IMG/VR virus record: IMGVR_UViG_2562617057_000005 | Source: a virus | Lineage: Duplodnaviria > Heunggongvirae > Uroviricota > Caudoviricetes | Direction: 5' to 3' (one strand) | Length of the DNA stretch: 39,213 nucleotides | Part shown: one piece after another, positions 1,566-39,213 of the stretch | How the letters are laid out: every line of letters starts with the position of its first letter | How positions within the stretch are numbered: the stretch's first letter is position 1 | Notes under the pieces: model-generated | Databases searched by the model: none | What the model was told of the DNA's origin: nothing | Seen by the model: only the letters and a program-made list of their open reading frames with translations | Program-made: the position numbers and the translations under genes

Positions 1566-1720
1566 TGATGTTTGACGAGTTGAAGGGACGTGAGATAAAT
1601 GAATGGTGATTCGTGAGATAATTTCGAACGGGAGTGGGTTAAAACGAATGCTACCGAATAATTTTATGAAATTGTTTTGCTGTATGTGAAACGGTAGCAG
1701 TTCACAAAAAACAGAGAATA
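1566..1720 (+). repeat. putative prophage end (att-like) with Mu-type transposase-binding-like motifs
   Basis: 5'-TG at about 1566-1570, then TTGAAGGGACGTGAGATAAA resembling the Mu L1 end site (TTGAAGTACGAAAAA). Nearby are CGTGAGATAA twice (about 1589 and 1612), TTTCGAACGG and TGAAACGG. Position is ±5 bp. Confidence 0.4.
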
Positions 1721-1920
1721 TGAGTGGTAAAATTTCTAATCCGTGTTCCGTGAATGGAGAAATATTGCCCATGCCCGATAAAAATAGCAACCCATCTGAC
1801 TTTTCCGAAGATATGAAAGGATGCGTTACCTTTGAGTCAGAACGTTATGGACCATCAGGCGATTCATCAGATAACTGTTCTTCTCAGTCTGATGACGATG
1901 CACCGCCACCACGGGACTAA
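1720..1920 (+). CDS. hypothetical small acidic protein (66 aa), doubtful
   Basis: ATG ORF with a weak ribosome-binding site; acidic Ser/Asp-rich C-terminus; converges on the 214-aa gene with a 3-4 nt overlap. May be non-coding end sequence. Confidence 0.2.
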   Translation: MSGKISNPCSVNGEILPMPDKNSNPSDFSEDMKGCVTFESERYGPSGDSSDNCSSQSDDDAPPPRD

Positions 1921-2561
1921 TCTTTCTGCCGTGCGCTAATAGCTTTATTTCTGGTTCGTCTGATCCTCACCATGGCAATCTGATCTGCAGGGATATAGGT
2001 TGCCATCGCTCCCCAGCTTTTACTTTCAACATCTTTTTCAATCCATTCATCGCGCCCCGGTTTTTTTTCATGAGTGACATACATCACTATGTCTTTTTCC
2101 ACTCCTAACACAAAAGAACCGCTGGCCTGGCCTTCAAATTTCCCCGGATTTTCAGAAAGCAGCACAGTACCATTCTTCAGATAGACATACGCCTCGCTGA
2201 TATAGTATCCATGTTGATCAAACATACGCATCCAGGCAGAGGGGGTATCATCAGACCATGATATATCCTTATTTCTGAGGAATCTGTACATCCATTTACG
2301 CCCATATTTTCTCCATAATGCAGCGTATGCAAAAGCGCAAAGAAGTGTTGGAGGTGTCGCCAGCCACGAATTCAGACCTGCCCACATAACAGCCTGGTAA
2401 ACCATCATTGACAGCAAACCAAAAATCAGCGTCGAAAACGTCACCTCAATGGGTTTGTGATGGTTCTTCAGCCCCACGTTCGCAATAAAATAGCCGATAT
2501 AACCACTGGTGAGCGTCACCAGCGTTGCCCATGGCAGATTCAGCAAGGATGCATCAAACAT
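1917..2561 (-). CDS. hypothetical membrane protein, three predicted N-terminal TM helices plus a ~120-aa soluble C-terminal domain; candidate prophage cargo (superinfection exclusion or abortive infection-like)
   Basis: 214-aa ORF with GGAGG about 5 nt upstream of the ATG. Hydrophobic stretches at roughly residues 11-31, 40-63 and 68-83. Separated from the upstream mor operon by a hairpin terminator, so probably its own transcription unit. Confidence 0.7.
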   Translation of the reverse strand: MFDASLLNLPWATLVTLTSGYIGYFIANVGLKNHHKPIEVTFSTLIFGLLSMMVYQAVMWAGLNSWLATPPTLLCAFAYAALWRKYGRKWMYRFLRNKDISWSDDTPSAWMRMFDQHGYYISEAYVYLKNGTVLLSENPGKFEGQASGSFVLGVEKDIVMYVTHEKKPGRDEWIEKDVESKSWGAMATYIPADQIAMVRIRRTRNKAISARQKD

Positions 2562-2588
2562 ATTTCCTCCGGTGATATGTTTTTCTGC

Positions 2589-2628
2589 CAGAATAAAAAA
2601 AGCGCAACAGGTTATCCATTGCGCTTTT
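2589..2628. terminator. putative bidirectional rho-independent terminator
   Basis: A7 run, stem AGCGCAA...TTGCGCT, then T run (T7 when read on the minus strand). Sits downstream of the leftward mor operon and upstream of the 214-aa gene. Confidence 0.5.
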
Positions 2629-2655
2629 CATAAACCGGGAATTTATTGACGTTCG

Positions 2656-2847
2656 TTAACACTTTGGTGGCGGTGGTGGTGGGTTACGTAAAACTTTCCC
2701 GTAATACAAAACACAATTTTCATCAGGCCCGATATGCAGGCGCGAGTTGTCAATCAGCCTGTCGCATTCCCGGAGAACATATCTCGCCTCAGCAGAAGTC
2801 AGACCGTCAAAAAAAATGCCGGATAATTTCCATCGCCATATCTGCAT
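2656..2847 (-). CDS. hypothetical 63-aa protein with C-terminal Pro6 run, doubtful
   Basis: ATG ORF with weak AAGG ribosome-binding site between mor and the terminator; low-complexity C-terminus. Confidence 0.25.
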   Translation of the reverse strand: MQIWRWKLSGIFFDGLTSAEARYVLRECDRLIDNSRLHIGPDENCVLYYGKVLRNPPPPPPKC

Positions 2848-2911
2848 GGTCTGCCTTCTTCAGGGGGGGCGCTGTTGGGGGTTTTATAGCGCATTATCAC
2901 CTCGCTTTTGA

Positions 2912-3298
2912 TTAATCCCGGCTGTCATCCGGTTCATCATCGTCTTCGAATAACTGCCCCTGCAACCGGCTGATTTCTTCCTTTCTTACGCGCTTCACCA
3001 GGTTGTAAATCCAGGGAACTGAAACCCTGAATCTGCGGGACAGTTCGTGGTGGTTACGTCCGTTAAACGCCTCATAGATTTCACGGTCACGCTGGCTTAT
3101 CTTCCATCTCATCCCCATAGGAAAATAAACGTTTTGCCCGCCCCAGACCTGCATCATGCGGTTCGCGACGGCCTGACCAATCTGGTCGGCAACTTCGGGC
3201 TCAATATCAATAATCTCGCGAACGGTCTCAGAGGTATGCTGTGCCAGCTCCACCAGGAGTTCCGGCCCTTTACTTCGAAACTGATTCAGGTCGCTCAT
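2912..3298 (-). CDS. mor: Mor/C-family transcriptional activator (middle operon regulator-like)
   Basis: 128 aa; the segment GGQNVYFP...EIYEAFNGRNHHELSRRFRVS...YNLVKRVRK parallels Mu Mor (GGGQVYIP...FNGRN...). GGGAG ribosome-binding site upstream. Confidence 0.8.
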   Translation of the reverse strand: MSDLNQFRSKGPELLVELAQHTSETVREIIDIEPEVADQIGQAVANRMMQVWGGQNVYFPMGMRWKISQRDREIYEAFNGRNHHELSRRFRVSVPWIYNLVKRVRKEEISRLQGQLFEDDDEPDDSRD

Positions 3299-3722
3299 GT
3301 TTTACTCCCGCAGCTCTGTGCTGCCACTTCTTCAGTTTCTCAATAACACTGCTTGCCTGTTCAGTATTGAGCCAGCGCAGGGCGCTGATGCCCGTTTCCC
3401 GCTTGATCCACCGCGCTAATGCATTTTCTGAACGGTCACGAACAATGCCGGCAGCAGCCATTTCAAGCCATAGCGCACGGATTTTCCTGGACTGCGGATG
3501 GTTATCCAGCGGTAAACCGGAGCTGGCTTTTCCGGCAGGCTTAACGCGAAAGCCTTTCCTTTTCATGGATTCCAGCACGCAGTTTAGTTGTGTGGTATCC
3601 ATTCCTTTGGTTGAGGCTTTACCGGTCAGCCCCTGTAACATCTGGCGGTAGGTGTCTTCATCCATACCCAGTTCATTACGGGCAATATGAATGAGCTGGA
3701 TAAGACGTTGTTTAGTCATCAT
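3270..3722 (-). CDS. gemA: GemA-like regulatory protein (DUF1018 family)
   Basis: N-terminal KQRLIQLIHIARNELGMDEDTYRQMLQGLTGK pattern typical of Mu GemA-like proteins. Start placed at the first ATG of an ATG-ATG pair with AAGGAG upstream; the track ORF extends to 3761. Confidence 0.7.
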   Translation of the reverse strand: MMTKQRLIQLIHIARNELGMDEDTYRQMLQGLTGKASTKGMDTTQLNCVLESMKRKGFRVKPAGKASSGLPLDNHPQSRKIRALWLEMAAAGIVRDRSENALARWIKRETGISALRWLNTEQASSVIEKLKKWQHRAAGVKHERPESVSK

Positions 3723-3927
3723 CGTTGCTCCTTTTACCTGCGCCACCGATATAATCGACATATAAAGGAAGCGCCACAGGCCAGCACAGGAACATCACCG
3801 ACCAGCTAATCCAGTAGCTGGCACCACTGTAACGTGAATAAAACCCTGAACGGCGGTGCAGTTCAGCAGTACACCAACCGACAAAACAATACCAGAACAG
3901 GGCACATACAACAGATTCAGCAGTCAT
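3712..3927 (-). CDS. hypothetical small membrane protein (about 71 aa)
   Basis: Internal ATG of the 3712..4083 track ORF, with a G-rich ribosome-binding site. Hydrophobic segments (VVCALFWYCFVGW, WSVMFLCWPVALPLYV). Overlaps neighbours by about 11 nt. Confidence 0.4.
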   Translation of the reverse strand: MTAESVVCALFWYCFVGWCTAELHRRSGFYSRYSGASYWISWSVMFLCWPVALPLYVDYIGGAGKRSNDDD

Positions 3928-5921: not shown

Positions 5922-6452
5922 TTACTGCACATCCTGCTCAAAAGGAATTATTGAAAAATCCTCAATGTCACTTTTTATGGTAATACCGGGAATATTTTTC
6001 ACGGCGTCCTTTTCATTCAGGATAGCGTCTTTATTTATTTCCTCTTTTACACGAATAAAGCGCTCAAGCCCCAGACGTCTCAGTAGTTCAATAACATTAT
6101 CCGCTCCGCGAATGCTGACTGACGGCGGGCGGTTTCGCCACTGCACCTCGCCGGTGGTGAGGTTAGCAAACTTCACCTTCCCGTTGCCGGTCAGTTCATC
6201 ACGGTGTGCCTCACACCATGTCTGGATACCGGACTGCAGTTCGGCCATGCGTTTTTTCAGGCTCTCGGTGAGCGGGGCATAACGTGCGGTGATGTCGCCA
6301 ATGGCGTCATTCATTTCTGTTTCAGCCCTGACCAGTTCACGTTGTGCGTCACCGAGCAGTCTGATTCCCTCAATGACCTCTTCACGAGTCCCCGGCACCC
6401 AGAGTGCTGCTGCGGCCTTGATACGTTTTGCCCCTTTTGTACTTTTTGCCAT
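5922..6452 (-). CDS. gam: Gam-like host-nuclease inhibitor / DNA-end-binding protein
   Basis: 176 aa; matches Mu Gam along its length as I remember it (AKRIK...AAA, ETEMNDAI, WCEA(N/H)RDELT, PPSVSIRG, GLxRFIR, GITxKSxIEDFSIIPFEQ). Confidence 0.9.
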   Translation of the reverse strand: MAKSTKGAKRIKAAAALWVPGTREEVIEGIRLLGDAQRELVRAETEMNDAIGDITARYAPLTESLKKRMAELQSGIQTWCEAHRDELTGNGKVKFANLTTGEVQWRNRPPSVSIRGADNVIELLRRLGLERFIRVKEEINKDAILNEKDAVKNIPGITIKSDIEDFSIIPFEQDVQ

Positions 6453-6751: not shown

Positions 6752-7918
6752 TTAAACCCCTTTGACAACGTCAGCGTTGACCTGTGGAACCCCGATTTCA
6801 GCAGCCAGATTCATGGCGGCTATTACCAGGTTACTGACGGCCAGCGGATACAGCAGGCTGACCCTGTTTTTACGGTGACTTCCCGGATTGCTCAGGCGGG
6901 CACGTATGGCATCCACTGCGCCGGCGTCCATAATGTCCGTCAGTTGTTTACCGGCCCGTTGCAGTTTGAACGTCAGAAACTCTTCAAGGTGATTGTCCAG
7001 AGGCAGAAGTTCGACCACCTCACAGCGCTGAACGACTTCACGGACTTCCATATTGCGTTCAGACAGTTTTGTCGCCAGTTCCGGCTGGCCAATCAGCACG
7101 ATGGACAGCAGTTTTTTGAAACCGGATTCCAGCTCAAAAAAGCGTTTGAGGTGTTTCAGTGTCGGAACGGGCAGACTGTGGGCCTCCTCAATCACCAGAA
7201 CGTGGCTGAACCCCGCCTGGCTGCTGTCTTTCAGGACGCGATGCAGCTGGCGAAAGCGGGCGTCCTGACTGCGTCTGATGCTTTCCAGTGGTGCGATGGT
7301 ACTGATAATGGCTTCGGCAATTGCTGCTGCCTTCAGGGTTTTCCCTTTCACATCGTTGTCTTCCATAGCGATGATGTATGGCTCGATAACAATCACCGGC
7401 GCATTCTCGCGGTTGATACGTTCAGTCAGGTCACGGCGCAGCGTGGATTTACCCGCACCGGACTCACCGATGACAGCCATAAACCCACCATGACGGGCTG
7501 TCTGGTACAGCGCCTCACGCACGTAGCGAATGTCCGGGGTGGTGAACACATCATCAGAACCCTGCATGGCTTCATCGGCGAACGGGTCACGGAAAAGACC
7601 AAACGCTTTTTTGGTTGCCGGGAATAACACCTGTTTTTTGAGTAACATGTTCTCTTCCTCACTGAGGTTCGTTTTATCTGTGGTACCCGCTGTACGGGGC
7701 GTGGCCGCGCCCTGTACAGCATCAAAACTCTTCGTTGTATCAATCCCCTGAGTTTCCAGCCAGGACGCAAGACGCCGGCGTACTTCTCCGGGACTGGTGC
7801 GGGGCCACGCGTTATGATTCACAATCTGGGCCAGCGTGGCCTCAGAAACATCGACGGCTCTCGCCACCACCGCCTGTGGAATACGGGCCTCTTTCAGTTG
7901 CTGCTTCAGTACCAGCAT
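6752..7918 (-). CDS. MuB-like transposition ATPase (AAA+), N-terminal HTH
   Basis: Walker A GESGAGKS and Walker B-like VLVIEEAH. The track ORF starts at a TTG at 7945; I place the start at the ATG at 7918, which has GAGGAGGG upstream and lies 10 nt after the transposase stop. Confidence 0.9.
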   Translation of the reverse strand: MLVLKQQLKEARIPQAVVARAVDVSEATLAQIVNHNAWPRTSPGEVRRRLASWLETQGIDTTKSFDAVQGAATPRTAGTTDKTNLSEEENMLLKKQVLFPATKKAFGLFRDPFADEAMQGSDDVFTTPDIRYVREALYQTARHGGFMAVIGESGAGKSTLRRDLTERINRENAPVIVIEPYIIAMEDNDVKGKTLKAAAIAEAIISTIAPLESIRRSQDARFRQLHRVLKDSSQAGFSHVLVIEEAHSLPVPTLKHLKRFFELESGFKKLLSIVLIGQPELATKLSERNMEVREVVQRCEVVELLPLDNHLEEFLTFKLQRAGKQLTDIMDAGAVDAIRARLSNPGSHRKNRVSLLYPLAVSNLVIAAMNLAAEIGVPQVNADVVKGV

Positions 7919-7928
7919 GTTTCCCTCC

Positions 7929-9698
7929 TCAGTTGCCGTTAACAATGCTGATAACGCTGCTGCGGGCCGGCGTGGTCAGCGTGGCCATGACTTCATCCAG
8001 TGCGGCTTCCGGTACGCCGTCCGGGTACTGTGCCGTTAACTGGCGGTAATGTTCCGGCGTCCAGGTAAGGCCGTCGGCGCTGAACTTATCGCGCAGGGCT
8101 TTCGCGGCCTCCACATGAGTCATGGGACGTTGTTCAGTGCGCGGCCCGCGTACGTCAGAGGCCTGACCGCGCTTCGGTATACAGGCCGGAAGCGTGGTGT
8201 CATCGATATGTTTATACGGGTCAAGCCGCCCGCCGAACGGCAGCGCCTTCGCCTTGCGTGCAGCAGCTGCATCTGCGGCGTTGTCTGTACCGGTGACCAG
8301 CGCTTCGGTTTCTTTTGCCGCCGCCTGCGCCGGTGTTTCCGGCAGGGTTTTGTAACTTTCGCCAAATACCGCCGCGCTTTCAGCAAAGCCAAACTCGTTC
8401 TTTCTGACCTCTTCGACCAGGAAGAACGTCTCGTGGCCGTCCTCACCGGTCAGAACCACCTGTGCCACATCGCTGCGCCACGGGTTACGGGTAATCATCA
8501 GTTTTTCACCGACCAGTACGCCCGGTACCGTTGATACGTCAAATTCAGTGCCCCGGAACGAGACACGAAGTTTTGGCGTGACTTTGCGGAGTTCTGGTGC
8601 CGCCACAGCCAGTTCACGGCATACCTCAACGGAAGGCGCTTTTTTCAACTGGTCAGCAGTAATCTTCAGCCAGATATCCGTGCGGGTTTTACCGTGGCGG
8701 CTGTGAACAGCCGTGGCGTTAAAGTGGCTGCGCCATTTTGCGGCCAGCGCGTTGAGTTCTTCCAGACTGTGAACCGGCCGGAACTTCAGACCCGGCTCCA
8801 GCCTGCGTTCGATAATGTCACGCGCCTTTTCCACCTGTCCGGTGGCGCGGGCGTTATGCGGCTTGTGCGCTATCAGGTCGATGCCCAGTGAGCGGCACAT
8901 GTTTTTCGTCATACCCGCGGTGTTTGCCGAGCCGGGGTCGAGATAGAGTATTTTCGGCACGCCGTGCAGCACGTCTGCGCCGCCACGCTCCTGCATGGCG
9001 TTGATAAGCACAGAACACAGGTTCTCACCGGATTCCGCACCCGTCACATACTCAACGTAAATCCAGCCGCTGGCATGGTCGGTAATCTCGTAACTCCACA
9101 CGCGGTCACTGGCGATACGGGCAAGATTAGCGGGTTTGTTCTTGTAGAACTTCGCGCTGTCCATCACCTGCAGCCCTTTGTGTCCATTGCTCAGGTAGTA
9201 AAGCGTGCAGAGAGAGGCATCAATCTGCCAGACATGATTGGGATGCAGGCTGGCCACTTCGGTATGCGGCGCAGGGGCATCCAGTTGTTCCGGGTGCAGG
9301 CCATAGTTACGCAGGGCACGACTGATGGCATCTTCGGACAACGGGAAAAACTCACCGGTGGTTTCATCTGTTCTGCCTGCGGAGATAAAGCCGTTAGCCC
9401 GCAGGGTTTCCACTGCATCCGCGATGGAATAGAGACGCTTACCGTTCTTGCGGGTGGCCTCACGCAGTGTGGCAGATATCAGCGCGGCTTCGTCGCGGGT
9501 CAGGGTGCTGCGTCCGGCATCGGCGCGTTTTTTGCGTTTATCAGTCACAGAGACCTCCTTCAGCCTGCGCAGCAGAGTGGCGCGGGACATGCCAAGTTCA
9601 GCACAGGCAGCGTCGTATACTGCACCGCGCTTACCATGCCCCGCGTCACGTGCCGCGCGGGCTGTTTCAACCAGTTTTTCAGTCAGTGCCGGGGTCAT
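7929..9698 (-). CDS. Mu-type DDE transposase (MuA-like)
   Basis: 589 aa; N-terminal HTH region and an integrase/rve-like core (WQIDAS ... YLDPGSANTAG), immediately upstream of the B-like ATPase as in Mu. Confidence 0.9.
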   Translation of the reverse strand: MTPALTEKLVETARAARDAGHGKRGAVYDAACAELGMSRATLLRRLKEVSVTDKRKKRADAGRSTLTRDEAALISATLREATRKNGKRLYSIADAVETLRANGFISAGRTDETTGEFFPLSEDAISRALRNYGLHPEQLDAPAPHTEVASLHPNHVWQIDASLCTLYYLSNGHKGLQVMDSAKFYKNKPANLARIASDRVWSYEITDHASGWIYVEYVTGAESGENLCSVLINAMQERGGADVLHGVPKILYLDPGSANTAGMTKNMCRSLGIDLIAHKPHNARATGQVEKARDIIERRLEPGLKFRPVHSLEELNALAAKWRSHFNATAVHSRHGKTRTDIWLKITADQLKKAPSVEVCRELAVAAPELRKVTPKLRVSFRGTEFDVSTVPGVLVGEKLMITRNPWRSDVAQVVLTGEDGHETFFLVEEVRKNEFGFAESAAVFGESYKTLPETPAQAAAKETEALVTGTDNAADAAAARKAKALPFGGRLDPYKHIDDTTLPACIPKRGQASDVRGPRTEQRPMTHVEAAKALRDKFSADGLTWTPEHYRQLTAQYPDGVPEAALDEVMATLTTPARSSVISIVNGN

Positions 9699-11325: not shown

Positions 11326-11514
11326 TTAGGCTGCCTGAGCCGTTGATTTCAGTCCCAGTTTCACGGCGATTTCATGGGATTTACCGTAACGGGCTTTGGT
11401 CTGCCCGTTGAGAACGCGGTATACCTCATTGCGGTTGTAGCCGTTCTCTTCTGCCCAGCGGGTGAAAGTGATCCCGCGCTGGCGGAAGAGAGCTTTGACT
11501 TGTTCTGCAGTCAT
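11326..11514 (-). CDS. Ner-like small DNA-binding regulator (Cro analogue)
   Basis: 62 aa, first gene of the leftward operon, divergent from the repressor; AAGGAG ribosome-binding site; pattern resembles the Mu Ner/Nlp family. Confidence 0.65.
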   Translation of the reverse strand: MTAEQVKALFRQRGITFTRWAEENGYNRNEVYRVLNGQTKARYGKSHEIAVKLGLKSTAQAA

Positions 11515-11614
11515 CGTTGTCTCCTTTGTTGATGCAATGATGTTTGCCTTATGTGTGATAGATTATGGTGCAGATTACCTCACCAGTCAACTTAAAGAGT
11601 GCAGAAAAACTTAC
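11515..11614. promoter_or_regulatory. divergent early/repressor control region (putative operators and promoters)
   Basis: 100-bp gap between the divergent ner-like and repressor genes; contains GTGCAGA twice (about 11568 and 11600). Confidence 0.45.
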
Positions 11615-11953: not shown

Positions 11954-12039
11954 TTCTGACCTGGACACAAAGGACAGGTGGTTGATCTGGACGCTTTCAG
12001 AAAGCGCCGTCAGTAGCATGGCAGAAATAGGCTGGCTTA

Positions 12040-12070
12040 CCGGAAAGCATTGCGCTTTCCGGTTCTGTTT
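12040..12070 (+). terminator. putative rho-independent terminator at the repressor/dam convergent junction
   Basis: Stem CCGGAAAGC / GCTTTCCGG with a 5-nt loop, followed by TTCTGTTT; ends at the dam stop codon. Confidence 0.5.
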
Positions 12071-12834: not shown

Positions 12835-12881
12835 AATCTGTAAGCCTTTTACAATTATTAAAAATATGGCAGGCTAGTCTG

Positions 12882-13489: not shown

Positions 13490-13564
13490 GGGTATATCCT
13501 CATTCTGCTACCGATGGTAATGACGGGAAAACTTTACTGTTTTCACCTGTTGATGTGGGTGTCT

Positions 13565-31076: not shown

Positions 31077-31288
31077 TGTTTCTTGAACATATTACCCGTG
31101 ACGGAGAGCGCTGGGATTCGCTGGCATGGCAGTACTACGGTGACCCGCTGGGCTATCCCCGGATTATTGCCGCCAATCCGCACGTGGCCATTACGCCGGT
31201 GCTGCCCTCCGGGGTGTTGTTACTGATCCCGGTTATTGAGGCTGAAGATGCCCGCACAGAAGAGGATATTGCCCCATGGCTGAGATAA
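31076..31288 (+). CDS. tail protein X-like (LysM-like)
   Basis: About 70 aa; RDGERWDSLAWQYYGDP...IIAANPHV resembles P2 gpX. ATG at 31076 after a GTG at 31073. Confidence 0.7.
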   Translation: MFLEHITRDGERWDSLAWQYYGDPLGYPRIIAANPHVAITPVLPSGVLLLIPVIEAEDARTEEDIAPWLR

Positions 31289-32430
31289 ACAGCACTGCGC
31301 AAGCCACATCAGCGTTAACCGGCGTCAGCGAGGTGCTGACGCCGGTGTTCACGCTGTGGTATCTGCAGAAAAATATCACCTCTGATATCGCGCCTTATGT
31401 CACCCGTGTGGTCTGGAGCGATAACATCAAAAATGAGTCCGATACCATTGAGGTGGAGCTGGACGACACCGATGGCCGCTGGCTGGATAAGTGGTATCCG
31501 GGCAAGGGTGACACGCTGACGCTGAAAATGGGTTATCAGGGCGAGAAACTGCTGTCCTGCGGTACATTCTCAATAGACGAGATCGAAGTGAGTTCGCCCG
31601 CGTCCGTTGTCGCTATCCGTGGGGTGGCCACCTCGGTTAACAGTGCTCTGCGGACTAAATCCAGCCGTGGTTTTGAGAACACCACGCTGGCAGCTGTTGC
31701 GGGGCGGATTGCCAGAAAGCACCGACTGAAACTGGTGGGCAGCATTGAGTCCATCAGAATCGACCGGGTGACCCAGTATGCTGAAACCGACGTGGGTTTT
31801 CTGCGCCGGCTGGCCAGCGGGTATGGTTATGCAGTGAAAGTGGTCAGTGACCAGTTGATTTTTTCTCATCTGGCCACATTGCGCAGTCAGGAGCCGGTCA
31901 GGCAGTTAAAACCGCAGGATGTGGCCCGCTTTTCCCTGCGTGACACCATCAACCGGGTCTATAAATCTGCAAAGGTAAAACACCAGAAAAGCAGCAGTAA
32001 AAAACTGATCGTCTACGAAGCTGATGGTGGTACCCGTGAAAGCGACAAAAAGCTCAAAGGCGGTAAGGTTACCAGCGCTGACTCACTTAAAGTTAACAGC
32101 CGCGTCAGCGACCCGGACAGTGCCCGGATTAAAGCGGATTCAGCACTGGCCAGACATAACGAATATCAGCAGAACGGCTCCCTGACGCTGACGGGAACGC
32201 CTCAACTGACAGCAGGCAACAAAATTGAACTGGTGGGCTTTGGACAGTTATCCGGGCCATGGCTCATAACCACTGCCCGCCATGCGTTTGAGCGTAACAG
32301 CGGCTACACCACCGAGCTGGAAGTGGCACGGGGGCCAGTCACAAGAGGGAAAAAACAAAAAACTCAGAAACTCACGGTTTATCACCCGGATGGCAGTACA
32401 TCGACGGTGATTAAGGAGAAGAAAAAATGA
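31276..32430 (+). CDS. tail late-control/hub protein, P2 gpD-like
   Basis: 384 aa after the X-like gene; size and position match P2 D. Confidence 0.8.
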   Translation: MAEINSTAQATSALTGVSEVLTPVFTLWYLQKNITSDIAPYVTRVVWSDNIKNESDTIEVELDDTDGRWLDKWYPGKGDTLTLKMGYQGEKLLSCGTFSIDEIEVSSPASVVAIRGVATSVNSALRTKSSRGFENTTLAAVAGRIARKHRLKLVGSIESIRIDRVTQYAETDVGFLRRLASGYGYAVKVVSDQLIFSHLATLRSQEPVRQLKPQDVARFSLRDTINRVYKSAKVKHQKSSSKKLIVYEADGGTRESDKKLKGGKVTSADSLKVNSRVSDPDSARIKADSALARHNEYQQNGSLTLTGTPQLTAGNKIELVGFGQLSGPWLITTARHAFERNSGYTTELEVARGPVTRGKKQKTQKLTVYHPDGSTSTVIKEKKK

Positions 32431-32939
32431 CAGGTGTCACCCGTCAGGTCGGTACGGTCAGTGCCGTTGATGCCGACAGGGTTCAGGCCCGCGTTCGTCT
32501 GCCTGAATGCGATAACCTGCGCACAAACTGGCTTAACGTGCTGCAGCGCAATACCCAGGATAACAAGGATTACTGGCTCCCTGACGTGGGGGAGCAGGTT
32601 GAGGTGCTGCTCGATGCCAACGGCGAGGATGGTGTCATTCTGGGCGCGGTGTACTCAGACGTCGATAAACCGCCGTTCAGTGATAAAAACGTCCGGGGCA
32701 CGAAATACGCGGATGGCGCGGAGTTCAGTTATAACCGCGCGACCCATACGCTGACGGTCAAAGGAGGTATTGAGCATGTGGTGATCGAGGTTGCAGTGGG
32801 TATCAGCCTGAAGGGGAAAACCATTGATTTGACTGCTGACACCACCACGGTGAATGGCGACCTTGAAATTAACGGTAATGCCCACTCGACAGGTAGTATG
32901 CTGTCTGATGGTCAGAACTCTAATCATCACTCGCACTGA
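32427..32939 (+). CDS. baseplate spike protein, P2 gpV-like
   Basis: 170 aa with an OB-fold-like N-terminus and a His-rich C-terminal tip (NSNHHSH); AGGAG upstream. Confidence 0.8.
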   Translation: MTGVTRQVGTVSAVDADRVQARVRLPECDNLRTNWLNVLQRNTQDNKDYWLPDVGEQVEVLLDANGEDGVILGAVYSDVDKPPFSDKNVRGTKYADGAEFSYNRATHTLTVKGGIEHVVIEVAVGISLKGKTIDLTADTTTVNGDLEINGNAHSTGSMLSDGQNSNHHSH

Positions 32940-32995
32940 GATTTCTTAAACGCCTTTAATATCGGCGTTCCCTTCCGGGGGCAATACTGCCCCCC

Positions 32996-33343
32996 ATGAA
33001 AACGACCTCAGTATTCTGGCAACCGGCTCTGCAGGCTCCCGGCGAAATCGTCCGGGGGCTGGATGATATCCGGCAGTCCATTCAGATCATCCTGCGGACT
33101 CCCCGCGGCAGCGACCCGCATCGCCCGGAGTTCGGCAGTAATCTGCACCTTTATATCGACTGGCCTGTCGACCGGGCCATTCCGCATGTGGTTCGCGAAT
33201 CCGTCGATGCCATCAGGCGCTGGGAACCCCGCTGCCAGCTTATGTCGGTTAAACCCGCCGTCGACGGCGAACATCTTACGCTCCGGGTGAGCTGGAAAGG
33301 CTCAGACGGACAACCCCGTACTCAGGAACTGCTATGGCGCTGA
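32996..33343 (+). CDS. baseplate protein, P2 gpW-like
   Basis: 115 aa; IRQSIQIILRTPRGSDPHRPEFGSNL is characteristic of the gpW/gp25 family. Confidence 0.85.
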   Translation: MKTTSVFWQPALQAPGEIVRGLDDIRQSIQIILRTPRGSDPHRPEFGSNLHLYIDWPVDRAIPHVVRESVDAIRRWEPRCQLMSVKPAVDGEHLTLRVSWKGSDGQPRTQELLWR

Positions 33344-34437
33344 CAGAACCCGATTTTATTGAACGCGATGCCGATAAAATCACGGCAGAAATGATTGCGA
33401 AGTATGAAGCGGATACCGGCAAAACGTTGTATCCGGCACAGGCAGAACGTCTGCTGATAGACCTGTGGGCCTATCGCGAAATGCTGGTCAGGGTGGCGGT
33501 ACAGGAGGCGGCGAAGCTGAATCTGGTCGCCTTTTCCCGGGAGCCGATGATTGATTACCTCGGAGAACTGGTTGGTGTATACCGCCTTGCCGCGCAGCCT
33601 GCCACCACCACACTTCAGTTCTCTGTGGATGAGGCACTGGCCATTGATGTGCTGATCCCGGCAGGCACCCGCGTCAGCGCTTCCGACAGTATTATTTTTG
33701 CCACCGATACAGATGTGGTGCTGAAGGCCGGATTGCTGCTGGTCAATGCCCCGGCCACCTGTACCGAACCGGGTACCTCTGGCAACGGCTGGCAACCTGC
33801 GCAGGTCAGTCAGTTGCTTGATGAGATTGATAACGTTGACCTGCTGGTGACCAATCTGACGGCCAGCTCTGGCGGTTCAGAGCAGGAAGACAATGACCGG
33901 CTCCGGGAGCGTATCAGGCTGGCCCCGGAGTCATTCACCAATGCCGGAAGCCGTGGTGCATACCGTTTTCATGCTATGGGGGCGCATCCCAGCATTGTTG
34001 ACGTCGCTGTTCTTTCTCCCGCTCCCGGCACTGTCGAGCTGTATCCGCTGCTCAGCACTGGTCTGCCGGACAGCGGTATCCTCACTCTGGTAGAGAGTTT
34101 CTGTTCTGACGAAAAAGTCAGACCACTCACTGATACCGTGCGGGCTAAAACACCTGTTCAGGTGGATTACACCATTGAAGCCAGGATTACGATCTATCGT
34201 GATCAGGATGCAAGGTCGGTAAAGGACAACGCTAACAGCGCCATACAGAACTGGGTGGCATCACGTGCCGCCACGCTGGGGCGCGATATTGTCCCCAGCC
34301 AGATTATCAGTGCATTGTCCGTTTCCGGGGTGTACCAGGTTGAACTGGTGACACCGGCACTGCGGGTGGTTGCAGAAAACGAATGGGCAAACTGTACGGC
34401 GATCACTCTTAACATGACAGGGGTGTCCGATGGCTGA
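33334..34437 (+). CDS. baseplate protein J-like
   Basis: 367 aa following the W-like gene, with overlapping start. Confidence 0.85.
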   Translation: MALTEPDFIERDADKITAEMIAKYEADTGKTLYPAQAERLLIDLWAYREMLVRVAVQEAAKLNLVAFSREPMIDYLGELVGVYRLAAQPATTTLQFSVDEALAIDVLIPAGTRVSASDSIIFATDTDVVLKAGLLLVNAPATCTEPGTSGNGWQPAQVSQLLDEIDNVDLLVTNLTASSGGSEQEDNDRLRERIRLAPESFTNAGSRGAYRFHAMGAHPSIVDVAVLSPAPGTVELYPLLSTGLPDSGILTLVESFCSDEKVRPLTDTVRAKTPVQVDYTIEARITIYRDQDARSVKDNANSAIQNWVASRAATLGRDIVPSQIISALSVSGVYQVELVTPALRVVAENEWANCTAITLNMTGVSDG

Positions 34438-35008
34438 GGCGCTACAACTCCCGCCACCGCTTGAGGGTGATATCAGTCTCAGAACGCTGGGAAGACTGGC
34501 CGGACGGCTGGATAACATCGACCTGAGCGTACTGATGGTCTGTCTCGTCGATATCGTCGACAGTTCCGCGCTGCCATGGCTGGGCGAGCAGTTCTCGCTG
34601 TTCGGCGATGGCTGGGAACTGGCGGAATCTGACGATGTACGCCGCATGCTTATCAAATCCGCTATCGAGCTACACCGCTATAAAGGAACACCGTGGTCAA
34701 TCCGGGAAATTATCCGCCGTTTTGGCTTCGGCGAAGTGGAGCTGATTGAAGGGACAGGGCAGATCGGCTACGACGGTAAACACAGTTACAACGGACTTTT
34801 CGTCCACGGCGATGCACAAGCCTGGGCTGTCTATCGGGTCATCCTTCAACAGCCCATCACTAATGATCAGGCGGCGCTGTTACGTCAGACGCTTGCTGCC
34901 TTTGCTCCGGCTCGCTGTCATCTGGCAAGTCTGGAATATCAGTCTGTCGCCATTCGCTACAACAGTACTACCCGTTATAACGGTAGTTACAACCACGGGA
35001 GCAGTTAA
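34430..35008 (+). CDS. tail protein I-like (baseplate wedge)
   Basis: 192 aa between the J-like and tail-fibre genes. Confidence 0.8.
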   Translation: MAEALQLPPPLEGDISLRTLGRLAGRLDNIDLSVLMVCLVDIVDSSALPWLGEQFSLFGDGWELAESDDVRRMLIKSAIELHRYKGTPWSIREIIRRFGFGEVELIEGTGQIGYDGKHSYNGLFVHGDAQAWAVYRVILQQPITNDQAALLRQTLAAFAPARCHLASLEYQSVAIRYNSTTRYNGSYNHGSS

Positions 35009-35010
35009 TT

Positions 35011-36456
35011 ATGGCAAATCTACCCGAAACCCCGCAGTGGGAAAACGGCATCTACCAGATTGAGGTCTCTGACCCCGTTCTGGGCGGACCTGACGGAATT
35101 TCTAACCGTCAGGGTAAACAACTGGCCAGCCGCACGCTGTACCTGAAGCAACAGGTTGAAAAAGGCGGGGCTGACCTTGCGAAACACATCGCGGCAGCAG
35201 ACCCGCATACCCGGTACGCACAGAAAGCCAGTCCGGCATTCACCGGCACACCAACAGCACCTACACCTGCAAATGGCGATAACAGCAAAAAGCTGGCGAC
35301 AACGGAGTTTGTGGCCAAAGCACTTGCGGCACTTGCAGGCAGCGCCCCTGAGACACTGGATACGCTTAAAGAGCTGGCTGACGCTCTCGGTAATGATCCA
35401 AACTTTGCGACTACGGTACTGAACAAGCTGGCGGAAAAGCTGGCTAAAGACCAGAACGGCGCAGATATTCCTGATCCTGCGCTGTTTGTCAAAAACCTTG
35501 GTTTACAGGAAGCGATAAATCAGGCTTCTGGCGCATTACAGAAAAACCAGAACGGCGCAGATATTCCGGGGAAAGATACCTTCACCAAAAATATTGGTGC
35601 CTGCCGCGCATATAGCGCATGGCTGAATATTGGTGGCGATAGTCAGGTCTGGACAACCGCGCAATTTATTTCGTGGCTGGAGAGTCAGGGAGCATTTAAC
35701 CATCCTTACTGGATGTGCAAAGGCTCATGGGCTTATGCAAATAATAAGGTCATTACAGATACAGGTTGCGGAAATATTTGTCTTGCAGGTGCTGTGGTGG
35801 AAGTTATTGGCACTCGCGGCGCAATGACCATACGCGTTACCACGCCGGGCACGTCCAGCGGTGGCGGAATTACTAACGCTCAATTCACTTATATTAATCA
35901 TGGTGATGCTTACGCTCCTGGCTGGCGACGAGACTACAACACGAAAAATCAACAACCTGCATTTGCTTTAGGGCAAACAGGAAGCACTGTCGGAAATGAT
36001 AAAGCTGTTGGCTGGAACTGGAATAGCGGGGTCTATAACGCAAACATTGGTGGCGCATCGACATTAATCCTCCACTTCAATATGAATACGGGGAGCTGCC
36101 CTGCTGTACAGTTCCGCGTGAATTACAGGAACGGCGGTATTTTTTATCGTTCAGCGCGTGATGGTTATGGCTTTGAAGCTGACTGGTCAGAGTTTTACAC
36201 CACAACCCGCAAACCCTCTGCGGGAGATGTTGGTGCATATACGCAGGCAGAATGTAACTCAAGGTTTATTACAGGTATTCGCCTTGGTGGTCTGTTATCT
36301 GTTCAGACATGGAATGGTCCCGGATGGTATGACAGGTCAGGTTATGTCGTTACGGGTTCAGTTAACGGAAACCGTGATGAATTAATTGATACAACTCAGG
36401 CAAGGCCAGTTCAGTATTGCATTAATGGGACGTGGTATAACGCGGGGAGTATTTAA
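35011..36456 (+). CDS. tail fibre protein (Mu S-like): constant N-terminal part plus variable C-terminal part inside the invertible segment
   Basis: 481 aa; crosses the gix-like site at about 35490-35511; C-terminal motif INGTWYNAGSI is shared with the inverted alternative copy ([12 protein letters not shown]). Confidence 0.9.
   Translation: MANLPETPQWENGIYQIEVSDPVLGGPDGISNRQGKQLASRTLYLKQQVEKGGADLAKHIAAADPHTRYAQKASPAFTGTPTAPTPANGDNSKKLATTEFVAKALAALAGSAPETLDTLKELADALGNDPNFATTVLNKLAEKLAKDQNGADIPDPALFVKNLGLQEAINQASGALQKNQNGADIPGKDTFTKNIGACRAYSAWLNIGGDSQVWTTAQFISWLESQGAFNHPYWMCKGSWAYANNKVITDTGCGNICLAGAVVEVIGTRGAMTIRVTTPGTSSGGGITNAQFTYINHGDAYAPGWRRDYNTKNQQPAFALGQTGSTVGNDKAVGWNWNSGVYNANIGGASTLILHFNMNTGSCPAVQFRVNYRNGGIFYRSARDGYGFEADWSEFYTTTRKPSAGDVGAYTQAECNSRFITGIRLGGLLSVQTWNGPGWYDRSGYVVTGSVNGNRDELIDTTQARPVQYCINGTWYNAGSI
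35451..35471 (+). repeat. 21-bp perfect direct repeat, copy 1 (CCAGAACGGCGCAGATATTCC)
   Basis: Identical to 35547..35567; encodes QNGADIP in the fibre gene. Confidence 0.6.
35490..35511. repeat. gix-like recombination site, left (CAAAAACCTTGGTTTACAGGAA)
   Basis: Inverted repeat of the site at about 38561-38582 (20 of 22 positions); resembles the Mu gix core (TTCCTGTAAACCGAGGTTTTGGATAA) as I remember it. Confidence 0.7.
35547..35567 (+). repeat. 21-bp perfect direct repeat, copy 2
   Basis: Identical to 35451..35471; lies inside the invertible segment, copy 1 outside. Confidence 0.6.
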
Positions 36457-36458
36457 CG

Positions 36459-36992
36459 ATGATGCACTTAAAAAACATTTCTGCTGGTAATCCTGAAACA
36501 AAAGAGCAATACCAGCTAACAAAGCAATTTAACATCAAATGGCTTTATACAGAGGATGGGAAAAACTGGTATGAGGAGCAAAAGAACTTTCAGCCTGATA
36601 CGTTGAAAATGGTCTATGACCACAACGGCGTTATTATTTGTATTGAAAAGGATGTTTCAGCAATTAATCCGGAAGGCGCAAGCGTCGTTGAGGTTCCTGA
36701 TATTACAGCAAATCGCCGGGCTGATATTTCAGGTAAATGGATGTTCAAAGATGGCGTAGTGATAAAGCGAACTTATACCGGGGAAGAGCAGAGGCAACAG
36801 GCGGAAAATGAAAAGCAAAGCCTGCTACAGCTCGTCAGGGATAAAACCCAGCTGTGGGACTCACAGCTACAGCTGGGCATCATTTCCGCCGGGAATAAGC
36901 AGAAATTAACCGAGTGGATGCTCTACGCGCAGAAGGTCGAATCCACAGACACCTCCAGTCTGCCAGTAACGTTTCCCGAACAACCAGAATGA
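36459..36992 (+). CDS. tail fibre assembly protein (Mu U-like)
   Basis: 177 aa; homologous to the inverted 37021..37548 gene (both begin MMHLKNI.AGN). Confidence 0.85.
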   Translation: MMHLKNISAGNPETKEQYQLTKQFNIKWLYTEDGKNWYEEQKNFQPDTLKMVYDHNGVIICIEKDVSAINPEGASVVEVPDITANRRADISGKWMFKDGVVIKRTYTGEEQRQQAENEKQSLLQLVRDKTQLWDSQLQLGIISAGNKQKLTEWMLYAQKVESTDTSSLPVTFPEQPE

Positions 36993-36996
36993 AACA

Positions 36997-37016
36997 AGGC
37001 CCGATATCGGGCCTTA
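36997..37016. terminator. bidirectional rho-independent terminator between convergent fibre-assembly genes
   Basis: Perfect 20-bp palindrome AAGGCCCGATATCGGGCCTT followed by AATTTTT; A-rich on the other side. Confidence 0.6.
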
Positions 37017-37020
37017 ATTT

Positions 37021-37548
37021 TTACTCAGGCTTTTGTGGCCATTCTGGCTTTGCCGTATCCACACGGCTGACCAGAACACTGTAGCGTTCCCATGCTTCCA
37101 GTCGTGTGCGTTCCTCGTCCGTCGCCATATTCAGCCTGACAGCGCGTTCCAGCGGCTGGATGACTGATTCAGCTTCGGAAAGCAATGCGGCCTTTTGTGA
37201 TTCGGCCTGTTGTTGCTGTTCGTCAGCCGTATAAATCCGTTTAACCACAGCTCCGTCCTTAAACATCCACTTACCGGAATCATCAGCACGACGATTAGCT
37301 GTAATATCAGGAACCTCAACGACGCTATAACCTTCAGGGTTAAGCGTGGAGGCATCTTTGGTGATGGCGACAATAATATTATTTGCATCGTAAACAATCT
37401 TTATTGTGTCTGGCTGAAAGTTCTTCACTTCCTCATACCAGTTTTTTCCGTCCTCAGAGTAAAGCCAGATGACTCCGTGCTTCTTTGTTAACTCATACTG
37501 CTCCACTGTTTTAGCATTACCTGCTTTTATGTTCTTTAAGTGCATCAT
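37021..37548 (-). CDS. alternative tail fibre assembly protein (Mu U'-like)
   Basis: Start at the [10 protein letters not shown] Met pair of track ORF 37021..37581; paralogue of 36459..36992. Confidence 0.8.
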
Positions 37549-37549
37549 A

Positions 37550-38560
37550 TTAAATACTCGCCACATTATACCAGGTGCCATTTATATACTTTTGCACTGG
37601 CCTGTAATGAACGCCTGCAATATTATCGGCAGAGTTTTTTCCGGTATCCTGTACGTTAATCCCCGTCAGTACATAGCCTGACGGGCACTGAAAATTCCAT
37701 GTTTGCCAGTTGTTCACTCCATAATATTGCTGTGAACCAAGCCGGACATCTTTCACATATCTGGAATCAAAATTGCCATAGTTGCCGGGAATAACTTGCG
37801 AGCCGCAAAGCCAGTTCCCGTTATTATCCATGTACGCCTGACCATCGGTGCCATTGGCTGTCCTTGAGTTATTAATCATGTAGATGCCAAATTGCTTATT
37901 TCCCAGACCGCCAATCATAAATTTGCGGTCGGCATGGTCCTGACGGAGCAAAGCCTGAGCACCATCAGTGGATACCGCATTACGGCCCAGAATAACATTC
38001 TGGTCACGCATATGAATCCACATGCCGGTACTACTGTTAATTGCAAAACGGTTTGCAAATATATCCCCTGTAACATCAAGACCATGCCCCATGCTTATCC
38101 GGCCAGTTCTGAGATTAAGCGTAAAGGGGCGTAGTGGCCCTATATTACCATTTTCCCCTTCATTCTCTCGTGTAGGGATGATATGCAGGCATTCTTCAGA
38201 ACGACGAAAAATGGCACCAAAAGATGAATTAAATATCCTCAGTGCATTGACTGTCGATATTTTCACTTCACTGCTGAAAAGGGCTTCAACAAGAACAGAC
38301 AAAGCATTCCATTTAAGATTCATCAGGTCTTTAGGCCGGGTGCCAATGATGCGGTGTCTCCATTTGAAATATTCATTGCCGTTGTTGCCTGTTTCAAACC
38401 ACATGTAGGAATCGGTGTCTGCATCCGAATTATTTTTAAACCCAATCTTTGCCCAGTCAGTATTTCGAATCCAGGCAAGGATTGAGTCGTTTTCAAAAGT
38501 AAGTCCACCGGACAAGGTATCGCCTGTCTTTTGGACAGCGTTATCAGCCTTGTTTACCGT
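37550..38560 (-). CDS. alternative tail-fibre variable C-terminal segment (Mu S'v-like); no own start, expressed after inversion
   Basis: Open frame runs through the right gix-like site in the same phase as the fibre gene through the left site (both read GLQE across the core); ends [12 protein letters not shown]. Confidence 0.8.
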
Positions 38561-38582
38561 TTCCTGTAAACCAACGTTTTCG
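38561..38582. repeat. gix-like recombination site, right (TTCCTGTAAACCAACGTTTTCG)
   Basis: Inverted copy of the left site. Confidence 0.7.
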
Positions 38583-38631
38583 TCTTTATCCCTACCTATA
38601 CCAACTATGTATTTTTCACGAAACAAAGAGG

Positions 38632-39213
38632 ATGTTTTTTATGCAAATTGGCTATATTCGTGTGTCAACAAATGACCAGAACACGGATTTACAACGCAAT
38701 GCACTGAACTGCGCAGGATGTGAACTGATTTTTGAAGATAAAATCAGCGGAACGAAATCAGCCAGACCGGGATTGAAAAAACTGCTCAGAACGCTATCAG
38801 AAGGAGATACGCTGGTTGTCTGGAAGCTGGACAGACTGGGCAGAAGTATGAAACACCTGATCACGCTTATTGAGGAATTGCGGGAAAAAGGTGTTAATTT
38901 CCGTAGTCTGACGGACAGCATTGACACATCAACACCCATGGGGCGTTTCTTTTTTCACGTCATGGGGGCTTTAGCCGAAATGGAACGTGAATTAATTGTA
39001 GAGCGTACACTGGCCGGACTGGCAGCAGCACGTGCACAGGGGCGTATTGGTGGACGTCGTCCGAAACTGACAAAAGAGCAACATGAACAAATAGCAAGGC
39101 TGATCAAAAATGGCTATAGCAGGAAACAGTTGGCAATTATTTACGATATCGGTATATCGACGATTTATCGTTATCACCCTGTAGAGGAACTTCAAACTCA
39201 AGCTGAGTTGTAA
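38632..39213 (+). CDS. gin: serine recombinase DNA invertase, Gin/Pin/Cin/Hin family
   Basis: 193 aa, complete (stop at 39211-39213). MQIGYIRVSTNDQNTDLQRNAL...VVWKLDRLGRSMKHLI...GRFFFHVMGALAEMERELI..GRIGGRRPKLT matches Mu Gin closely as I remember it; catalytic Ser in YIRVST. Confidence 0.95.
   Translation: MFFMQIGYIRVSTNDQNTDLQRNALNCAGCELIFEDKISGTKSARPGLKKLLRTLSEGDTLVVWKLDRLGRSMKHLITLIEELREKGVNFRSLTDSIDTSTPMGRFFFHVMGALAEMERELIVERTLAGLAAARAQGRIGGRRPKLTKEQHEQIARLIKNGYSRKQLAIIYDIGISTIYRYHPVEELQTQAEL

Follow-up and report, generated by a model that had tools for sequence, protein, structure and literature searches.

A BcepMu-like transposable prophage upstream of hemL in Escherichia coli, with a Mu-derived invertible fibre cassette and predicted Mor/C-dependent late promoters

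Phages of the BcepMu-like group share a published layout in which genes 1 to 13 lie on the bottom strand with lysogeny control at the interface; Rz/Rz1 belong to the lysis cassette, the tail is related to that of P2, and the transposase is a member of the Tn552 family with no relation to MuA (PMC2771037). For this group (Summer et al. 2004; Lavigne et al. 2009), the criterion of Lavigne et al. is that members have at least 40% of their proteins in common with the type phage (PMC2771037). Prophages of the BcepMu type are routinely reported in Salmonella and Escherichia coli, and the family is often labelled just "Mu-like" or left as hypothetical proteins. Here, we analyze one such element in a stretch of 39,213 nucleotides (IMG/VR record IMGVR_UViG_2562617057_000005; below, "the window" is this whole stretch), for which a preliminary description had proposed a mosaic transposable prophage of BcepMu-like rather than Mu or D108 type. 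We translated 58 candidate open reading frames (ORFs), compared them by tblastn with the genomes of BcepMu, Mu and P2, and scanned them for Pfam families. The element is very probably a single, apparently intact temperate BcepMu-like transposable myovirus. Its layout is that of the published group definition, and the promoter boxes, the frame of the tail chaperone extension and the Mu-derived fibre switch described below are modest additions to it. The phage group is an ordinary and well-known one, and the practical value of the work lies mostly in annotating a family that is frequent in E. coli, where 625 of 5,426 complete genomes match the packaging region; the notable extras of this member are a host-range switch borrowed from Mu and a predicted four-promoter late circuit.

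The affiliation with BcepMu is carried by gene order, protein identity, the left terminus, which is homologous to that of BcepMu, and the label of the closest phage in GenBank. Thirty-six genes (of about 55) are collinear with BcepMu, order and strand being unchanged, and 36 of the 53 annotated BcepMu proteins are matched (tblastn, E ≤ 1e-3), which lies above the 40% shared-protein criterion. As in the BcepMu-like group, the genes form two divergent clusters, the bottom strand carrying the early genes and the top strand those for the repressor, lysis, the head and the P2-like tail. The comparison that had been suggested as a check, that of the transposase, portal and sheath with BcepMu, Mu and P2, gave 67%, 59% and 77% identity to BcepMu, respectively. 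Identities to BcepMu elsewhere are, for the early region, 49% (Mor/C), 44% (GemA), 59% (the AAA ATPase), 41% (gp10 homologue), 33% (gp12 homologue), 46% (gp16 homologue) and 36% (repressor); for the lysis genes, 53% (holin), 65% (SLT endolysin) and 34% (Rz); for the head, 47% (TerS), 59% (F), 44% (G), 50% (protease/scaffold) and 45% (capsid); and, for the tail, 67% (tube). BcepMu matches were also obtained for the homologues of gp35 to gp38, the tape measure, and U, X, D, V, W, J and I. In both, moreover, the only Mor/C gene is at the left end, and the repressor found where the strands switch is of the cI type; the series holin-SLT-Rz/Rz1, the P2-type tail, the predicted late-promoter box and a chaperone extension in the +1 frame are likewise shared. 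The element differs from BcepMu by a Dam methylase, a Gam of the Mu type, a TerL of another lineage and an invertible fibre cassette plus invertase, and it has no acyltransferase gene at its right end. At the DNA level, blastn covers 25% of the element at 68% identity to BcepMu (NC_005882), or about 17% overall. Current ICTV practice for genera asks for about 70% genome-wide DNA identity, a value that the element does not reach with BcepMu; it belongs to the broad BcepMu-like group and not to a strict genus with BcepMu.

With Mu (NC_000929), the element has in common a presumed lifestyle of replicative transposition, several protein families (GemA, Mor/C, Gam, gp27, portal, F and G), the architecture of the predicted late promoters, a tail chaperone extended in the +1 (= −2) frame, and the nearly identical DNA of the G segment (89%) and gin (73%). 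By tblastn, the Mu matches were GemA, Mor/C, Gam, TerL, portal, F, G and the fibre cassette; Mu A, c, ner, L and T had no match in the element at E ≤ 1, and B and M had chance-level matches only. The element departs from Mu in that its early block is turned around with respect to the late genes, a single activator stands where Mu has Mor plus C, its tail belongs to the P2 type and not to the Mu L/M/N/P type, and com/mom are absent. The likeness to P2 (NC_001895) concerns the tail genes FI, FII, E, T, U, X, D, V, W, J, I, H and G, whose relative order is mostly kept; P2 matches were confined to tail genes (FI, FII, U, D, V, W, J, I, H and G at 24 to 38%), apart from a weak TerL match. The P2 capsid and terminase genes (Q, P, O, N, M), tyrosine integrase, cos, Ogr and A/B replication genes are missing from the element.

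The closest phage in GenBank is PhiKM (PQ738613), labelled Bcepmuvirus, with about 95% DNA identity over the shared backbone; prophages in 32 complete E. coli genomes are equally close at about 95%. In PhiKM and E. coli prophages such as those of A20, ST69, R9 and A33, this identity extends over the early region, the lysis genes, the stretch from portal to baseplate, and all four promoter boxes. Differences lie in TerS-TerL (16479-18283), in part of the accessory region (13022-13590), in the cargo of the left end, in the fibre cassettes and in the place of insertion. Two database labels in this family deserve a remark: Klebsiella phage KP12 clone KP12_2 (OM835952.1) is filed under Vequintavirinae yet is BcepMu-like, and the label looks wrong; and PhiKM (PQ738613.1) carries a coding sequence annotated as "Fe2+ ABC transporter permease" between its fibre gene and Mor that is likely host or junction DNA.

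Bases 1 to 1580 of the window are ordinary E. coli chromosome, comprising clcA (1-1422, minus strand; Pfam Voltage_CLC) and the yadX/clcA upstream region. All but one of the 5,426 complete E. coli genomes (5,425) match the window through base 1580, where each of these matches stops, and related prophages of other strains align from base 1581 on. The left boundary, previously put at 1566, has to be moved accordingly: host identity runs to 1580, the element starts at 1581, and the prophage spans 1581-39213 of the window. The left terminus (1581-1640), 5'-TGAAGGGACGTGAGATAA, is homologous to the BcepMu left end, TGAAGAGAGGTGAGATA, and contains a second copy of CGTGAGATAA at 1612-1621, about 20 bp inward; these CGTGAGATAA repeats are presumed to be transposase-binding repeats. 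In a genome without the insertion, the break point is 99 bp away from yadX and, on the hemL side, 66 bp upstream of the start codon. The insertion sits within the divergent yadX/clcA-hemL control region. No prophage was found at the hemL-upstream site in any of the 5,426 complete E. coli genomes. The window's last base is the stop codon of the invertase gene (38632-39213), and the right terminus falls beyond it. In strains A33 and R9, a BcepMu-type right terminus (...GCGCATCA) stands about 80 bp past the invertase gene and is followed by host DNA; because of these termini, we estimate that the whole element is about 37.7 kb long and that its last ~80 bp or so lie outside the window. For this copy, we predict a right terminus reading ...CGCGCGGCGCATCA about 80 bp after the invertase stop, with a right junction of ...GCATCA/ACGAGTATTTAAC, and we expect ACGAGT ATTTAACTTG past the terminus as the 6-bp duplication of the hemL-upstream target.

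This arrangement is most likely the result of transposition upstream of hemL. BcepMu-like phages are characterised by TG...CA termini, insertion at many sites with a short target duplication, and host DNA on the virion ends. Relatives of about 95% identity in four strains adjoin dpiA, ygfM, ycbJ/elyC and yicL, and relatives occupy five different loci in all. One of them, 95% identical and residing in E. coli R9 (NZ_CP107164.1, around 76163 and 114314), begins with TG, ends with CA and is flanked by a duplicated 6-bp target, TCTGGC. The target duplication of Mu is 5 bp, and 6 bp is in line with Tn552-family transposases. Transposition explains the scattered insertion sites of the family.

The early region reads leftward, on the minus strand toward clcA, and the repressor rightward; both directions had been proposed from the ORFs, and tblastn and Pfam confirm them. 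The first gene of the early operon encodes a small Ner/Cro-like helix-turn-helix (HTH) protein (11326-11514, minus), the gp16 homologue, with weak HTH_31/HTH_35 matches. It is separated by a divergent control region (11515-11614), holding an early-promoter-like TTGACT-17-CATAAT that reads leftward at 11590-11562, from a cI/Cro-type HTH repressor of 112 amino acids (11615-11953, plus; HTH_3 E = 1.6e-7), the gp17 homologue. The transposase (7929-9698, minus) is a DDE (rve) enzyme of the BcepMu/Tn552 type (rve E = 1e-8), whose identity to BcepMu gp09 extends over 581 amino acids, and the gene after it encodes an ExeA-like AAA ATPase (6752-7945, minus; AAA_22 E = 5e-20; gp08 homologue) that would be the functional analogue of MuB. 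These two proteins had been called homologues of Mu transposase and B. A DDE transposase and an AAA ATPase are indeed present, but neither has a BLAST match to MuA or MuB even at E = 1, and sequence searches of solved structures gave no relative of either; "Mu-type replication" is, for this pair, an analogy and not homology. The claimed Gam, GemA and Mor homologues on the minus strand, by contrast, are borne out by Pfam and by matches to Mu. Gam, a Mu-type DNA-end-binding nuclease inhibitor (5922-6452; Phage_Mu_Gam E = 4e-41; 62% identical to Mu Gam), has no BcepMu counterpart by tblastn; GemA (3270-3761; Pfam GemA E = 1.6e-40) matches both BcepMu gp02 and Mu GemA (36%). The last gene of the operon encodes the Mor/C-family activator (2912-3298, minus; Pfam Mor E = 5e-41), which besides BcepMu gp01 is 42% identical to Mu C (tblastn) and matches the solved structures of Mu C (9l0x, E = 1.6e-10) and Mor (1rr7, E = 2e-7). 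A second Mor/C locus was not found in the window, and the earlier view that a single activator lies at the far end from the late operon is upheld.

Three observations weigh against an apparently intact temperate phage. The right terminus and target duplication of this copy fall outside the window; SOS induction is not assured, because the repressor has no peptidase domain for autocleavage; and one minor gene after the tube may be damaged. The last of these is an ORF (26855-27136) that encodes 93 amino acids in PhiKM, A33 and KP12 and here carries a +1 G insertion in a G7 run (26879-26885) and a 12-bp in-frame deletion, leaving just 26904-27125 (73 amino acids) open; an error in sequencing, phase variation at the run or damage to an accessory gene could each account for it. 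The unseen right end and this ORF, together with a TerS-TerL lineage that differs from its neighbours and could in principle be a mismatch, would suit a defective or cryptic remnant that keeps the BcepMu-like gene order and gives no phage output. We regard such a remnant as improbable, since all recognisable essential genes are complete ORFs that their Pfam families match over the full length, the left terminus is undamaged, and the altered ORF retains an in-frame ATG and is without a BcepMu counterpart. The terminase itself argues for a working module, its allele being kept at 95.5 to 97.4% identity in 20 other E. coli prophages of the family.

That terminase module is one of two real mosaic joints of the element, the other being the invertible fibre cassette. 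TerS, of the Mu gp27 family, and TerL (438 amino acids; Terminase_6N/6C) occupy 16479-18346 on the plus strand (Pfam), and 16479-18283 has no DNA similarity to PhiKM, though its flanks are about 93 to 95% identical. The TerS-TerL allele is carried by 20 of the 625 E. coli genomes that match 16400-18500 (2.1 kb). TerL is only 24% identical to BcepMu gp28; the value is 66% for the TerL of the Mu-like Pasteurella phage AFS-2018a, 54 to 64% for several marine phages and 32% for the TerL of B3, a transposable Pseudomonas phage. To judge by these alignments, TerS-TerL is a swapped module of a different lineage than its flanks. Neither this swap nor the fibre cassette (35486-39213 with its invertase) nor the minus-strand accessory block treated below had been recognised in the preliminary description.

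BcepMu has been described without a fibre inversion system (PMC2771037). The element, in contrast, ends in an invertible fibre segment of the Mu G type (35486-38580), in the G(−) orientation, which aligns in inverted direction with Mu 32442-35037 at 89% DNA identity. On either side, at 35492-35543 and at 38529-38580, stand gix-like inverted repeats that align with the Mu gix sites, and the segment contains an Sv'-type fibre end, U' (36459-36992, plus), U (37021-37581, minus) and an alternative Sv (37550-38580, minus); identities to the Mu fibre proteins are 97% (S'), 96% (U'), 90% (U) and 66% (S). The statement that all late genes lie on the plus strand holds for the lysis, head and tail genes of 14121-36992, but not for the two alternative fibre genes at 37021-37581 and 37550-38580. 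A Gin-like serine DNA invertase follows (38632-39213, plus; Resolvase E = 2e-51 plus HTH_7), with 76% protein and 73% DNA identity to Mu Gin. The abrupt change in affiliation could mean that two elements lie side by side, a BcepMu-like prophage ending before the fibre genes and a Mu remnant consisting of the G segment and gin: from 35486 to the window end, DNA identity to Mu is 73 to 89%, the rest having almost none, and the GC content drops to 0.43 to 0.46 in 35486-39213. Yet the expressed fibre is one continuous chimeric ORF, its first ~143 amino acids resembling BcepMu gp52 and its last 323 being 97% identical to Mu S', and the join falls exactly at the gix-like site; no other Mu genes are present beyond the cassette; and A33, R9 and KP12, enterobacterial relatives that carry invertase-linked fibre cassettes, end in the cassette and invertase, then the BcepMu-type right terminus, then host DNA. 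This makes a pair of adjacent elements very improbable, and the continuous fibre ORF and the collinearity with BcepMu favour a single element, as had been supposed. The cassette then points to a recent exchange of a host-range module between two unrelated transposable phage lineages in the same host.

A single activator gene at the far end of the element raises the matter of how the late genes are served. In Mu, the site bound by C in four late promoters, which have a −10 but no −35 element, is an imperfect dyad of 16 bp with its centre at −43.5 (PMC2582627), and Mor binds likewise at Pm (PMC4390567). In the element, the two longest plus-strand intergenic gaps, before the holin and the head protease, are identical for TTAAAATC-N23-CTGTCTCC, and the shorter gaps before E and W hold variants of this box. 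We predict four late promoters from it, all on the plus strand: promoter 1 (14054-14098; TAACGCGCTTTAAAATC-N-GATGCTG) for lysis and packaging; promoter 2 (21248-21292), upstream of the protease gene, for the head operon; promoter 3 (27154-27198) for the chaperone, tape measure, U, X, D and V; and promoter 4 (32947-32991), overlapping a conserved hairpin before the W start, for the baseplate and fibre operon. Their hexamers end at 14095, 21289, 27195 and 32988. The pattern TAA-N6-TTAAWAK-N24-CTG, with at most one mismatch, occurs exactly four times in the window, always on the plus strand and always in these four gaps, against a chance figure of 0.08. Each site has a TTAA-N6-TTAA dyad; if the hexamer (C/G/A)ATACT serves as −10, the centre of the dyad comes to lie about 43 bp upstream of the presumed start, and no −35 element is seen. 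This spacing matches that of the Mu C and Mor sites and would explain how a single distant activator can serve all late operons. We propose that the four boxes are Mor/C-dependent promoters activated in trans by the single Mor/C homologue.

An independent test came from other genomes, in which 40 loci of other species were retrieved with the capsid as query and the 30 to 100 nucleotides upstream of the homologues of the four genes were scanned. The core TTAA[AT]A[TG] precedes the holin in 23 of 23 sequences (window included), the head protease I in 27 of 41, the tail chaperone E in 22 of 32 and the baseplate gene W in 14 of 15, a density 44-fold that of the rest of the late strand. The box-bearing sequences cover Photorhabdus, Xenorhabdus, Pectobacterium, Brenneria, Burkholderia, Gallibacterium and others, and 56 distinct sites give the consensus tTAA-N6-TTAAwAt-N19-AtaCTG, with spacers that vary. 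BcepMu itself repeats the 19-mer TAAAGCCGATTAAAAGACC, which includes the box, before its holin and head genes and has CTTTAATATC before its W homologue. Several points count against this assignment. The pattern was refined after the sites had been seen, and the chance figure of 0.08 is optimistic for that reason, the test in other genomes being the stronger one; many of the surveyed genomes are related, and the counts do not represent independent events; a box was seen neither upstream of E in Burkholderia nor in those relatives that are most distant; and the assignment to promoter and activator rests on position, conservation and the analogy with Mu.

As an alternative to predicted activator sites, the boxes might be sites for host factors or the repressor, or RNA signals, with late transcription reading through from one promoter. 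The AT-rich TTAA repeats could bind IHF or Fis-like proteins, and the W box overlaps the conserved hairpin and could act at the RNA level. We consider this unlikely: the spacing from dyad to hexamer does not vary among the four sites and is the one seen in Mu C/Mor promoters, both BcepMu and the present element have a Mor/C gene along with the box, no box occurs in the early and immunity region, and a terminator-like hairpin precedes promoter 2, making read-through alone unlikely there. Activation of all four boxes by Mor/C is the reading that we retain. Regarding promoter 4, W has no Shine-Dalgarno sequence and its −10-like hexamer stands 6 to 7 nucleotides from the ATG, and this points to a W mRNA that is leaderless or nearly so. 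The hairpin at this site, GGGGGCA-ATAC-TGCCCCC (32956-32998), lies directly before the W start and shows compensatory changes in Photorhabdus, Xenorhabdus and Burkholderia.

The tail chaperone had been described as frameshifted in the manner of P2, of which the conserved out-of-frame extension stands and the P2 frame does not. Programmed frameshifts of tail chaperones (lambda G/GT, P2 E/E+E', Mu gp41) involve an overlapping downstream frame for a conserved extension and a slip site within the overlap. Chaperone E (27222-27557, plus; Phage_TAC_7) is overlapped by an extension E' that is open over 27382-27639 in the +1/−2 frame, and the two together span 27222-27639. The conserved peptide past E, ...LLARWFRFQPGEIDALDTDDLEMWLEQAEEQI..., resembles the P2 E' extension, which is in the −1 frame in P2; the +1 (= −2) frame encodes it in the element, in BcepMu and in almost all of the relatives examined, which range from Photorhabdus to Burkholderia, Gallibacterium and Accumulibacter. 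Substitutions relative to three relatives fall in third positions of the E frame up to about 27460 and of the +1 frame thereafter, and stop codons of the relatives bracket the frame change to about 27444-27480. The Mu chaperone is mentioned with a −2 shift in a paper citing Xu et al. 2004 (PMC2628397). We infer from these patterns that the chaperone makes a second product through a +1/−2 shift, in the direction of Mu and not of P2. What speaks against this is that a search of the E/E' overlap settled no slip site and gave no classical slippery heptamer; A GGG GCT, ACG GGG ATG and CGA TTT C are possible candidates. The sequence CC GGG GGA G (about 27543-27551) was excluded as a general site, given an upstream E-frame stop in KP12-type relatives and selection on the +1 frame upstream of it, and an independent GTG start for E' was rejected, as it is not conserved in KP12. 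In Erwinia tracheiphila and Apirhabdus apintestini, E and E' are fused in frame (138 amino acids) with joins that differ; these fusions may be natural or homopolymer assembly errors.

Taking promoters, chaperone and W together, it is on balance somewhat probable that the whole BcepMu-like lineage, Burkholderia as well as Enterobacterales members, has four TTAA-N6-TTAA late promoters served by one Mor/C activator, a +1/−2 chaperone shift without a classical slippery heptamer and a leaderless or near-leaderless mRNA for the baseplate operon. In the literature on the group, the founding paper of Summer et al. 2004 aside, we did not find the four-promoter circuit, the +1/−2 shift or the leaderless W stated. 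If true, the circuit would be a one-step version of the Mor-then-C cascade of Mu, and the four boxes make a simple, testable model in which a single Mor/C protein replaces the two steps.

From the homologies, layout, termini, and conserved motifs and frames, the activities and regulatory order of the phage can be pictured as follows. In the lysogen, the rightward HTH repressor (11615-11953) would shut the leftward early promoter. Derepression would give one leftward transcript of about 9 kb for the Ner/Cro-like protein, transposase, ATPase, Gam, GemA and, lastly, Mor/C, and the transposase would act on the TG...CA termini, with the genome being replicated by transposition. Mor/C would be made last because its gene is the last of the early transcript, and this position at the far end may provide the delay that Mu gets from two serial activators. 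It would then act in trans on the four rightward promoters for lysis/packaging, head, chaperone/tape measure and baseplate/fibre. Virions would have Mu-type heads and P2-type contractile tails, with headful packaging from the integrated state by analogy, and the tail chaperone would yield its second product by a slip into the +1/−2 frame. The Gin-like invertase would flip the Mu-G-like segment and alternate between two fibre tips and their chaperones. Finally, the cell would be lysed by the holin, the membrane-targeted SLT endolysin and the embedded Rz/Rz1 spanin pair.

Among the remaining structural genes, those of the head begin after TerL with the Mu-type portal (Portal_Mu E = 3e-90), the F-like minor head protein (Phage_Mu_F) and the G-like virion morphogenesis protein (Phage_tail_S), at 18346-21105 on the plus strand; their identities to Mu are 27%, 48% and 29%, respectively. 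After the G-like gene, at 21106-21200, stands the terminator-like hairpin (AGGCT-TTAC-AGCCT plus a T run), near the physical centre of the prophage, where the strong gyrase site lies in Mu. The protease/scaffold, major capsid, cement-like protein and the gp36 to gp38 homologues follow (21320-24914, plus), at 45 to 53% identity to BcepMu gp32 to gp38 and with matches to Phage_Mu_Gp36, Gp37 and Phage_cement_2. The tail had been called P2-like (U, X, D, V, W, J and I), and both Pfam families (sheath, tube, TAC_7, GpU, X, GPD, V, W/gp25, J and I) and tblastn to P2 agree. The P2-type sheath and tube (24898-26852, plus; Pfam) are 32% and 29% identical to FI and FII; the tape measure and the homologues of P2 U, X, D and V occupy 27715-32939 (plus), and those of W, J and I, together with the constant N-terminal part of the fibre, 32996-35491 (plus), each identified by Pfam and tblastn.

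The lysis genes start with the holin (14121-14471, plus; Holin_2-3 E = 9e-42; BcepMu gp21 homologue), followed by the SLT lytic transglycosylase endolysin (14474-15214, plus; SLT E = 1.3e-14; gp22 homologue). For the latter, a signal anchor had been claimed. The SLT domain and a hydrophobic N terminus are there: the hydropathy profile shows a strongly hydrophobic stretch at about residues 30 to 58, rich in Phe, Trp and Leu and followed by ASA/AQ, and the N terminus of BcepMu gp22 aligns from residue 41. Signal-arrest-release (SAR) endolysins have a weakly hydrophobic N-terminal transmembrane domain that passes through Sec and leaves the membrane afterwards. As far as the sequence goes, a signal anchor (SAR) and a cleaved signal peptide are equally possible. 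Rz, the i-spanin, has an N-terminal transmembrane segment (15210-15848, plus; gp23 homologue), and Rz1, the o-spanin of 88 amino acids with the lipobox LLAVSC and a proline-rich sequence, lies in the +1 frame at 15544-15810, wholly inside Rz, consistent with the nesting noted before.

Between the repressor and the lysis genes lies the minus-strand accessory block (11954-14050), whose Dam methylase and P-loop ORF (12070-13990) interrupt the plus-strand series. It comprises a Dam-type N6-adenine DNA methyltransferase (12070-12834; MethyltransfD12 E = 2e-28; PADLOC MTase_II E = 1e-110), an 84-amino-acid ORF (13235-13489) and a 141-amino-acid P-loop ORF with the Walker A motif GPVGSGKS (13565-13990), all on the minus strand. 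In the Pfam scan, no family match besides the methylase was obtained in this block, and its stretch 13022-13590 is unlike PhiKM. PADLOC reported no defence system other than the methylase and left the cargo gene at the left end unmatched as well. The ORFs at 1434-1790, 12746-13081 and 13500-13811 were rejected as genes, having no family match and an implausible composition and overlapping better ORFs. The left-end cargo gene (1917-2561, minus) encodes 214 amino acids with a hydrophobic N-terminal part and matches phrog_12870 (E = 7e-92) and, weakly, DUF6338. The stretch that holds it together with small ORFs (1720-2915) is without a BcepMu counterpart and varies among the E. coli relatives, some of which align only from 2214 or 2244.

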